This document shows positions 15,001-18,000 of a stretch of DNA of 64,000 nt, in pieces. The stretch comes from Candidatus Micrarchaeota archaeon. Its GTDB lineage: Archaea; Micrarchaeota; Micrarchaeia; Anstonellales; Bilamarchaeaceae. The position numbers were made by a program. Location of the stretch: contig JBDRPL010000011.1 in the NCBI GenBank assembly GCA_043827025.1, positions 1 to 64,000 on the forward strand, given 5' to 3'. Position 1 is the stretch's first letter. Every line of letters begins with the position of its first letter.

Positions 15001-18000
15001 CAAGAAATTGTCTGTTGGCAAAAGAGTTGTTATCCAAGGATTCGGAAATGCAGGTGCACACATGGCAAGATTGATGGCACAGGATGGTTTCAAATTGATT
15101 GCAACATCTGATTCTAAAGGTGGAGCACTATTTGAAGCGGGATTCGATTACAAGAAACTTGAAGAAGTAAAGGAAAAACAAGGCAGAGTTGACGCATATC
15201 AGGGTTGCAAAAAGATTTCAAACGATGAATTGCTTGAATTGGATTGCGATATTCTTGTTCTCGCAGCTTTGGAGAATCAAGTCACAGATAAGAACGCTTC
15301 AAAAGTAAAGGCAAAGATGATTGTAGAATTGGCAAATGGTCCAGTAACTCCAGAAGCAGACGACATCCTTCATAAGCACAACATATTCCTGATTCCAGAT
15401 GTTCTTGCAAATGCAGGCGGAGTATGCGTTTCATACTTTGAATGGGTGCAGAACAGGTATGGCTATTATTGGGCAGAGGATGAAGTGAACAAGAAACTCG
15501 AAGATAAAATGGTCAAGGAGTTCAATGCAGTCTATGCAATCTCGAAGCAAAAGAATGTCGAGATGAGGACTGCTGCCTATGTTCTTGCATTGGGAAGGAT
15601 AGACCAGGCAACAAAGGACATGGGGACGGCTTACAAGTGATCTTTTATATTTTGTTTTCTTTTTTTCCATTGCTCGTACAACGTAATATTTGAATATATT
15701 ACTCTAGAGTAATATGTTCTGTGGTAATATAGTATTTATTGGTGAGTTTGGATGATTTCTGAACAGTAACTGCTTATAAGTAATTTTCTCCTGTTTTTGC
15801 TTCTTGTAGTCCACGGTTACATGTTATCGTAACAAATATTGCATTAATGTTACGTTTGAGTGTAACAAAGCTTTATTCTGGGATATCTCAGATGGAGATG
15901 TGTCAAACCATATATTTTTAAGGACATTGGCTCTTAATATCTACTAAAATTAGTATGATTAAAATAAATTTATGAGGTAAGATTATGGCAGTTGTTCAAA
16001 CTCAAAAAAAGATTGTTGATTTGGGAGATGCACCTTATCTAAGGGCCAGAGAAATATCTGTACAAAGAGGCATGAAATTAGCAAGCAATGTCCTTCATGA
16101 TGATTATCTTGTTGGATCAAACAGATATCAAAAAGTAAGACGTGTTTATGCCGCTTGGGCAAGAGAATTATTGGTTTATCCAGAACAAAATGGTCAGTTT
16201 GTCAGGGGCAAAGACGTTGTTGATTCTCATAAAGATAATACAGGAAGAGAATGGGTTTTACCAGCAAGTGATGTTCCAGAACAAGCAATAGGCAGGCAAA
16301 AAGTAGGCTTGTTTGTTGATCCTGAAAATATAGAGGTTACTGATAAAAGAGTAGTGATTCATCCAGCTTCTGTTGTTGTTTTAGATTCATTTATCCAAAC
16401 ATTAGGAAATGGTGGAAAAGTAGATGAAGCAACAAGGATTCCATTAGAAGTTGCCCCTGAACTTTGGGAAAAACTTTCTGATTCAGAGAAGAGATGGCTG
16501 TTCAGAACCGCAGGCGTTGGTGTAAGGCCTCTAGTCCGCTACGTCTACGACATCAACAACAGGCGTGTCGTCGATGCGGGCAACAGGCCCGGCCTTGGTT
16601 ACGGGGTGGCAGCAGAGGCCACCGAAGGTGGCGCGCCGCGTGTAACCAGTACTTCTAAATTGGTAATCTCTGTACAAGAACCTGGAAAATTAACTCTTGT
16701 TTCACCCTCCGGTTCTGACGAACAAATTCAAGCTGCTTTGAGAGTTCTAAGGTCGCAGAATTTACTCTAGTTTTTTAATCTCTTTTATTTACTTTATTAA
16801 TTCCTAGGTGCAAGCCTAGGCCACACACTCGTCTACAGCGCTGGTAGCTTAATAGCAGGCCAGACATGAATGAAAATCTTTAGAGATTTTCAGTATTTCG
16901 AAATCTAAAGATTTCTCAATGAAATTCAACAGCAACAGTGAGTAAGTTACCAACCGAAATCCTGAAGCTGTGGTGTCGGTACTTCGGTACCCTTTGAGTA
17001 GATGGGTTACCATTGGGCCTCTAGTCCGCAACGTCAACGACATCAACAACAGGAGTAATCTCTGGTTGCTTTTTCAAAATAACCAGTATTGCTGTGAAAG
17101 GCGTAACGTCAATGCGAACAACAGGCACGACAATGGTTACGAAATGACCTTACTGGCTTGCATTCTAGTTTAATTTTCTTTTTATTCTATGAACAATATG
17201 AAATCTTACCGGCATTTGTATTCCAAATTGTGTTCATACGAAAATCTTGAGCTTGCGTTCAAGTGTGCAAGGAAACGAAAAACCCTCAAACCATACGTTA
17301 TAGAATTTGGGTCTGATCTTGACAATAATCTAAAACGGCTGAAATGCGAACTAGAAAATTTTACTTACTCGCCCTTACCCCTAACGACTTTTATTGTGCG
17401 CGACCCTAAAACAAGAAAGATAAGTGCATCCCATTTCAGAGACAGGGTCGTACATCATGCATTATACAATGTCATAACTCAGATTTTTGAGAAAGATTTC
17501 ATTCATGATTCTTTTGCAAACCGGAAAGGCAAAGGAACTCATTCAGCAATAAAGCGATTTGAACAGTTTTTAGCACAAACCACACTCAACCATAAAAAAA
17601 CCATAGAGAGAGAGAGAGAGTCAAATTGGTTATGTACTAAAAGCTGACATACGCCATTATTTTGAAACAGTCGATCGCGAAATTTTATTGGGCATATTGA
17701 AACGCAAGTTAAAGGATACACATATTATCTGGCTTATAAGAAAAATATTGGACAACAACAAGACCGCTATGGTCGAAAAGGGTATGCCCATTGGAAATTT
17801 AACCTCTCAATTCTTTGCTAACGTTTATCTGAACGAACTCGACCAGTTTGTAAAGCACAAGCTGAAAGCCAAGTATTATATTCGTTATGTTGATGATTTT
17901 GTGGTTTTACACAGTGACAAGAACATTCTTGAAAAATGGAAGAATGAAATCGATGCATTTTTAAGATCAAATTTGGCTGTAGAACTGCACCCTGAAAAAT

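Follow-up and report, generated by a model that had tools for sequence, protein, structure and literature searches.

The templates of diversity-generating retroelements (DGRs) are taken to be colinear with the segment that they rewrite, and the tools that detect these elements rely on this colinearity. The closest described systems are the DGRs of DPANN archaea and Nanoarchaeota, for which Paul et al. (2015; PMC4372165) describe a target with a C-type lectin fold, a template repeat (TR), a reverse transcriptase (RT), adenine-specific change, and IMH/IMH* ends like GGGGTG/GAAATG, all of which are shared by the locus reported here. Length differences between the TR and the variable repeat (VR) are also on record, since a survey found in-frame TR/VR indels next to AAC in 25 of 372 DGRs (Wu et al., 2018; PMC5758913). 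In Bordetella BPP-1, a td group I intron was engineered into the TR, and the spliced template was described as being reverse-transcribed with adenine mutagenesis (PMC5703328); this is the only spliced TR that we found in print. Our full-text literature searches returned no natural TR intron, and subscription papers or bioRxiv supplements could hold a prior case.

We analyzed a window of 64,000 nucleotides, positions 1 to 64,000 of contig JBDRPL010000011.1, from the assembly of a Candidatus Micrarchaeota archaeon (GCA_043827025.1), a tiny inhabitant of groundwater. It carries a compact DGR of the DPANN kind, whose template is broken by a 48-nt insert. The insert is real, conserved, and exactly dropped, and it sits in the template of an active DGR. 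The names Sp, IMH and Avd are borrowed by analogy from Bordetella work. The features are as follows.

15985..16770, plus strand: target gene, 261 aa, C-type-lectin-like fold (ORF, structure model, structural matches)
16526..16610, plus strand: VR, without the insert, with an IMH-like GGGGTG end (TR alignment, second allele in run X1)
16560/16561, plus strand: VR junction, between AAC and AGG CGT (TR/VR comparison)
16803..17015, plus strand: Rfam RT-16 RNA, directly 5' of the TR (RF03019, 62.3 bits against a gathering score of 50, E 3e-9)
17016..17148, plus strand: whole TR, including the insert (VR match)
17016..17050, plus strand: TR 5' half, proposed exon 1, ending in AACA (17045-17048) and the bulge bases AC (17049-17050)
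17051..17098, plus strand: 48-nt insert in the proposed splice register (equivalent borders 17054-17101)
17093..17098, plus strand: 3' end of the insert, helix strand UGUG (17093-17096) and bulge bases AA (17097-17098) (register test)
17099..17148, plus strand: TR 3' half, proposed exon 2, with an IMH*-like GAAATG end (VR match)
17149..17188, plus strand: spacer between TR and RT (position; conserved in eight insert-bearing elements)
17189..18293, plus strand: DGR reverse transcriptase, in two frames (RVT_1, E 7e-14)
57900..59213, plus strand: host RtcB RNA ligase (PF01139, E 6e-167)
Contig C6, 9124 on, outside the window: splicing endonuclease (PF01974 and a match to 4FZ2, E 1e-131)

The structure model of the target protein had a pLDDT of 90.5, and placed the VR near the end of the lectin domain, with about 50 more residues following it. 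Its best structural matches were all C-type lectin domains, among them 5IOO, a DGR protein of Nanoarchaeota (Z 7.6, 155 aligned residues, rmsd 3.8), and the model also matched TaqVP (5VF4, Z 7.2); these Z scores are middling, and Foldseek gave no E below 0.001. A search for an Avd-like gene, limited to the interval between the target gene and the RT, found no ORF of at least 70 aa. By its position, the spacer between TR and RT may be the counterpart of the Sp RNA in Bordetella DGRs. In every RT-16 locus examined, the Rfam orphan motif RT-16 immediately precedes the TR, and it is therefore probably the 5' domain of the DGR RNA. In the window, this RNA has an extra 53-nt hairpin at about 16868-16920, as seen in the alignment of eight elements. 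Extra palindromic hairpins are likewise inserted in the RT-16 RNA of loci L006 and L103, and multi-hairpin blocks resembling RT-16 hairpins fill long tRNA introns of this genome. Locus L103 (G345, contig C98) keeps RT-16, target and RT, but in place of the TR it has unrelated hairpin sequence, and L134 (G028, contig C18) has two TR/VR pairs in tandem upstream of a single RT.

An earlier note on this DNA described a 48-nt TR block, lying between two AGG triplets, that is missing from the VR, and realignment bore this out. TR 17016-17053 corresponds to VR 16526-16563, and TR 17102-17148 to VR 16564-16610, with no non-adenine mismatch in either half, and the template adenines changed in the VR number 2 of 12 in the 5' half and 13 of 18 in the 3' half. 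The two halves thus match as the note had claimed, but its counts of one mismatch per half, and of 3 of 13 and 13 of 19 adenines changed, came from slightly wider borders. Over the two halves together, TR and VR differ only at template adenines, as in other DGRs (0/55 non-A mismatches, 15/30 adenines changed). With AGG on both sides of the block, its borders can slide by 3 nt, from 17051-17098 to 17054-17101. A genome scan with adenines as wildcards found one VR and one TR, there was no second copy of the insert in the genome even under this wildcard treatment, and the assembly contains one RT-16 RNA.

Homing crosses the insert, because the near-clonal loci L047 and L084 differ at VR adenines on both sides of the junction. 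These loci are 99.7% identical over 5051 bp, and identical in TR and insert. Of their 14 differences, 13 fall within the VR, every one of them at a TR adenine, with 6 before the junction and 7 after it; the remaining one lies elsewhere. A second VR allele in run X1, which may be the source sample, had been noted earlier to differ at 12 places, and we confirmed this number; 11 of the differences fall on TR adenines, 4 of them in the 5' half and 7 in the 3' half, and one is upstream of the VR. This allele has no gap, and is therefore also without the insert; two cassette copies appear to be collapsed in run X1. In the nine pairs with the insert, adenine change was 44/79 in the 5' half and 101/147 in the 3' half, compared with 154/263 and 224/327, respectively, in those pairs without the insert that could be split (22 of 33). 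It is unlikely that the insert-bearing TR is a fossil, since the VR alleles and the rates of adenine change show homing on both sides of the insert. The earlier proposal that the insert is removed or skipped during retrohoming, with both halves diversified, is thus supported by the L047/L084 comparison and by the adenine counts.

No VR that retains the insert was found among 10 VR alleles beside an insert-bearing TR or among 64 target homologues, and a weak search for a longer protein sharing the insert peptide gave no candidate. We rejected the idea that the insert is a coding segment of another target, there being no wildcard copy in the genome and none in the 64 homologues or in longer proteins. 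A self-homing signature within the insert was also rejected, its substitutions being without adenine bias (0.56, with 0.54 expected).

The search for relatives covered 401 genomes of the phylum and 99 of the family by DNA comparison, together with exact-pattern scans of species genomes and metagenomes. The scans required exact conserved ends, variants with altered splice sites being outside their reach, and 12 of 18 genome matches and 6 of 10 metagenome matches were due to chance. The earlier report of homologous inserts elsewhere, beside VRs lacking them, held and could be extended to eight distinct insert-bearing templates (L001, L002, L003, L005, L006, L038, L041, and L090). The insert occupies the same site in all of them, is 48 nt long in six and 45 nt in two, and is absent from the neighboring VR in 8/8. 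Within the family, 5 of 98 other genomes carry it, and the six true records of the genome scan comprise five labeled Candidatus Micrarchaeota and one labeled Desulfobacterales, the latter probably mis-binned. The 45/48-nt block was absent from 51 other Micrarchaeota-type TR/VR pairs (33 from the same searches and 18 more), and the empty site reads AACAACAGGC in 12 of these 33 insert-free pairs. The junction is exact in 9/10 VR alleles; the VR of L006 reads AGG AGG, and can be read as a 45-nt loss. Four insert-bearing VRs are short by 3 or 6 extra nt, and such deficits are ordinary for the group, because 16 of the 33 insert-free pairs differ by 3-15 nt, in multiples of three.

A single clade of insert bearers was rejected both on the RT tree (8 of 22 rows insert-bearing, p-AU 3e-9) and on a tree of RT-16 plus TR without the insert (7 of 25 rows, p-AU 3e-8, at least 4 changes); L012 (G198) is counted as one row of the RT tree and of the RT frame count, and the RT-16 plus TR tree leaves out four unextracted loci. 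Our conclusions do not depend on unpublished genomes. Since the bearers are not one clade on either tree, the insert has been gained, moved or precisely lost more than once, always at a single site. Run X1, over window positions 17024-17135, includes a second organism with the 45-nt insert and an identical 30-nt flank on each side, a contact that could allow template exchange. Among the X1 contigs aligned, neither the insert of the window itself nor a junction skipping it appeared. No other TR insert that might serve as an independent test of the BHB rule was seen in the 51 further Micrarchaeota-type pairs or in the 40 viral loci with a TR/VR pair (52 of 80 viral loci scanned), and a viral scan for the insert pattern gave 32 matches with no DGR among them.

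The eight inserts share a consensus fold that consists of ACAG/CUGU, a G-G mismatch, AGUA/UAYU, a 4-nt bulge, and a covarying YUGGY stem. In the intron-side helix, 97% of cells are paired and three pairs are changed on both sides, with a covariation score that was reached by 0/500 shuffles, a value inflated by the relatedness of the sequences. AGUA/UAYU is paired in 32/32 cells, compared with 29/32 for the helix needed by a register that would leave 5 nt behind. The sense RNA retains its G-U pairs, while the cDNA strand has a weak fold (-5.5 kcal/mol, z -0.4), so the conserved structure is one of RNA. The fold of -15.7 kcal/mol predicted in the earlier note was reproduced, yet it is not unusually stable (z = -1.4, with 17/200 shuffles as good over 17039-17110). 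All eight inserts are in the VR frame and free of stop codons and of codons that adenine mutation could turn into stops, whereas the other frames have stops; the shuffle product for this stop-free frame is 0.001, which is overstated because the sequences are kin. The only gap among the inserts is 3 nt long, compared with gaps of 1, 2, 4, and 5 nt in the flanking RNA. The insert has probably been kept in frame and stop-free because unspliced RNA is sometimes homed. Other possibilities were rejected. Pairing of the insert 3' strand with an RT-16 stem is unconserved, being possible at the homologous place in 4/8, with the best partner elsewhere in the other elements. A miniature transposon is contradicted by the lack of a second genome copy, by ends that are not inverted repeats, and by the constant site. 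For a group I/II intron or ribozyme, there was no Rfam match over the 48 nt at E up to 5.

Our preferred reading, to which we give a probability of roughly 55%, is that the insert represents a natural intron of the archaeal type, carried by the DGR template RNA and spliced by the host at the exact register. The RNA comprising RT-16, TR and spacer would fold so that AACA (17045-17048) pairs with UGUG (17093-17096) between the bulges AC^A and AA^A, giving a relaxed HBh' motif whose intron-side stem is strong and whose outer stem is loose. The epsilon2 splicing endonuclease of the host would then cut after the second base of each bulge, and RtcB, presumably acting in trans on the TR RNA, would join AACAAC to AGGCGU, which is the exact VR junction. 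With unmutated adenines, the junction of the spliced template would be AACAACAGGCGTAAC, with RT-16 sequence before it, and the RT would copy this insert-free template and mutate adenines on both sides. The data show that the insert is lost exactly and repeatedly while diversification goes on, that this geometry yields the right junction, and that the host encodes the enzymes; folding into this register, cleavage and joining of the RNA are inferred.

The AACA/UGUG register exists because the exon ends in AAC AAC, which lets UGU pair one triplet further upstream. If the AC^A and AA^A bulges are each cut behind their second base, the observed VR junction results in 8/8 elements. Among the four junction registers that the AGG repeat permits, AACA/UGUG is the only one with at least three central-helix pairs, and it has them in all eight. 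A match of this quality was found in 52/2901 hairpin-forming shuffles and in 1.8% of plain shuffles, and in 9.5% when only the last six bases were randomized, by criteria that were set after the pattern had been seen; three Watson-Crick helix pairs alone occurred in 774/2901. The central helix has three of four pairs and an A-G mismatch, and is invariant. A perfect helix would place UGUU before AA and so create an in-frame TAA, which may explain why the mismatch is retained. Directly after the first intron-side pair comes an invariant G-G mismatch, and the exon-side helix has only one pair in 3/8 elements and four of five pairs in the rest. Accordingly, the insert departs from the strict hBHBh' form and fits only the relaxed HBh' form; it behaves like a BHB intron and is a putative member of that kind.

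A second register competes with this one. The earlier note stated that standard BHB cutting would leave 5 extra nt, and this holds for the ACAG/CUGU register, which has a perfect 4-bp helix and the bulges GAG and GAA, but not for AACA/UGUG. The ACAG/CUGU form is the cheaper in 8/8 elements, at 1.5-5.7 kcal/mol above the minimum versus 3.7-6.5 for AACA/UGUG, and the latter costs 8.3-10.9 kcal/mol when all flanking pairs are forced. In addition, two invariant bases, the G of the G-G mismatch and one bulge U, find a pairing partner in the ACAG/CUGU register alone. The splice-site columns are all invariant in the eight elements and the central helix shows no covariation; because these columns never vary, comparison cannot pick the register. 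Nested two-step splicing, worked through by hand, was rejected, since its inner motif offers a single bulge, 4 nt long, and it would leave the competing register in place.

The enzymes that splicing would need are encoded by the host. The endonuclease is an intact ARMAN-2-type protein, an orthologue of 4FZ2 with the catalytic Tyr, His and Lys positions kept, and such an endonuclease is present in 5/5 other insert-bearing genomes tested for it. The epsilon2 endonuclease of ARMAN-2 is reported to cut relaxed motifs in vitro (PMC3239211, PMC12397907), and cutting after the second bulge base is described as the established rule for archaeal endonucleases (PMC12397907). Among the canonical tRNA introns of this genome, 5/9 have three of four helix pairs, and four of these have the mismatch next to the loose side, in mirror image to the arrangement in the insert. 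The BHB forms of the tRNA introns lie 0-9.2 kcal/mol above the minimum, compared with 3.7-6.5 for the insert in the same test, and both AA^A and AC^A occur as real bulges. The tRNA intron sites in this calibration were assigned by script, and 8 of 17 rows were dropped because the assigned site lacked a 5-of-5 anticodon stem or the intron was a false one of 8 nt. A 145-aa ORF at window positions 10042-10476 (minus strand) matches the tRNA intron endonuclease domain weakly and below the cut-off (E 3e-4), and shows no similarity to the main endonuclease by BLASTP; relatives carry a second endonuclease-domain gene that is over the cut-off.

Two further observations count against splicing. The TR has no tRNA scaffold, and the RT, which in the window is split at an (AG)8 run (17605-17620), is out of frame in 7/8 insert-bearing elements. 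The RNA runs X4 and X5 yielded 0 and 2 short loose pieces, with none from the TR, and so weigh on neither side. Of the 44 RTs with both halves, 11 are in frame, about three in four relatives thus being out of frame as well, and the hinge repeat is an AG-, G- or C-run in most. This pattern looks like phase variation, with the simple repeat acting as an on/off switch for the DGR, rather than like death of the element. A second, internally deleted RT on contig C7 of G000 (47940-48755, minus strand) groups with another RT clade; its first ~90 bases are identical to the window from 17164 onward, and it starts at the contig end, which suggests a chimera or a second cassette copy collapsed in assembly. 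Contig C9 has a target-gene remnant at ~40,200-40,330 (minus strand), with a large internal deletion that ends at the VR 3' end, and contig C8 has a full target paralogue at ~7130-7750 with no match to the TR.

The alternative that survives best, although we consider it unlikely, involves no cutting at all, with the RT copying the 3' AGG, stalling at the hairpin, realigning the nascent end on the 5' AGG, and thereby skipping 48 nt. AGG is present on both sides of the insert in 8/8 elements, the family slips readily, as judged by the 3-15 nt differences in threes in 16/33 insert-free pairs, and Wu et al. attribute TR/VR indels to slippage at AAC (PMC5758913). However, such a jump would have a microhomology of only 3 nt and a hairpin of unexceptional stability (z -1.4) to work with, it leaves the invariant bases between the stem and AGG without a role, and it sits poorly with a junction that is exact in 9/10 VR alleles and with undiminished diversification of the 5' half. 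Moreover, template structure ahead of an RT is reported to favor base addition and to inhibit omission (PMC5737552).

Next in order, and slightly more doubtful, is a scheme in which the cut falls in the ACAG/CUGU register (GA^G, GA^A), leaving AGGA and AAGG, and the RT switches or slips between the AGGs to remove the last 5 nt, with or without ligation; cleavage in this register could give RNA with AGGAAAGG at the junction. This scheme makes use of the perfect 4-bp helix and 3-nt bulge that are found in 8/8 and are cheaper than the exact register, it accounts for the AGG repeat and the invariant bulge bases, and the AGG AGG junction of L006 could be a 2-nt slip of such a product. Against this, it requires an extra, unprecedented step at every event, without which most events would end in a 5-nt frameshift; a U-U mismatch breaks its intron-side helix in 3/8; and 0/9 tRNA 3' bulges of this genome begin with G, a weak argument.

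We place below these two the improbable case that the insert is present in the cDNA and is lost at integration, either looped out or bypassed by halves homing as separate AGG/CG patches, with retainers selected away. In BPP-1, upstream cDNA integration is reported to need only at least 8 bp of identity (PMC3240598), which would explain homing of the 3' half alone, and the in-frame insert, without a stop or stop-reachable codon in 8/8, looks as if it sometimes reaches the gene. Yet not one of the 10 VR alleles or 64 target homologues keeps the insert, and its peptide was in no longer protein, a weak search; the hairpin in the cDNA is weak, the two allele pairs each differ on either side of the junction, and the insert substitutions show no adenine bias (0.56 vs 0.54 expected). 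Lastly, an unassembled insert-free TR acting in trans, with the insert-bearing TR as bystander or fossil, finds some room in the collapsed or missing sequence upstream of the contig C7 RT and in assemblies that are 86-92% complete, but is very improbable, since it would have to be missing in eight elements, the VRs follow their own insert-bearing TR at non-adenine sites (mismatches 2/229 and 1/288), there is one RT-16 in each of five genomes searched, and the insert stem is under pairing selection.

Split templates of this kind would be missed or truncated in DGR surveys. If the template must be processed, two unrelated machines, archaeal tRNA splicing and targeted hypermutation, would be joined, and splicing would extend the few known endonuclease substrates to a retroelement RNA and give host-dependent archaea a point at which mutation rate could be controlled. 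If the insert is instead dropped by the RT or at integration, it offers a direct handle on how DGR cDNA is made and integrated. A bolder and rather unlikely extension of the splicing reading is that the intron is both a host-controlled gate and a mobile module. The endonuclease would license hypermutation, the two overlapping BHB registers, one productive and one spoiling, would set its rate, and the intron would move between DGR templates at one fixed site, while unspliced RNA would occasionally home a 15-16-residue Trp...Tyr-Cys-Cys loop into the lectin binding site, giving diversity in length as well as sequence.

Compared with the DPANN and Nanoarchaeota DGRs as Paul et al. describe them (PMC4372165), the present element differs in having a TR broken by a 45-48-nt block that the VR lacks, an interval between target and RT that is free of any avd-like ORF, an RT-16 RNA upstream, and an RT split at a simple repeat; the searched parts of that paper hold no TR intron or insertion. 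The indels of Wu et al. (PMC5758913) are put down to AAC slippage, whereas here a structured, non-AAC block is lost; the 3' end of the insert was not found in the supplement text of that survey, and the "extreme example of length difference" in its Figure 4D might be an unrecognized case. The td intron in BPP-1 is described as a laboratory tag that is self-splicing and leaves 36 nt (PMC5703328), in contrast to the insert, which is natural, far too short for a ribozyme, and leaves nothing. Unlike archaeal BHB introns, the putative substrate is a retroelement template, with three of four helix pairs, a loose outer stem, and a competing register. It resembles the BHB introns described in pre-tRNA and cbf5 pre-mRNA (PMC3239211, PMC12397907, PMC2738675) in its hairpin, two 3-nt bulges and central helix, in an exact junction that second-base cuts would produce, and in patchy gain and loss.
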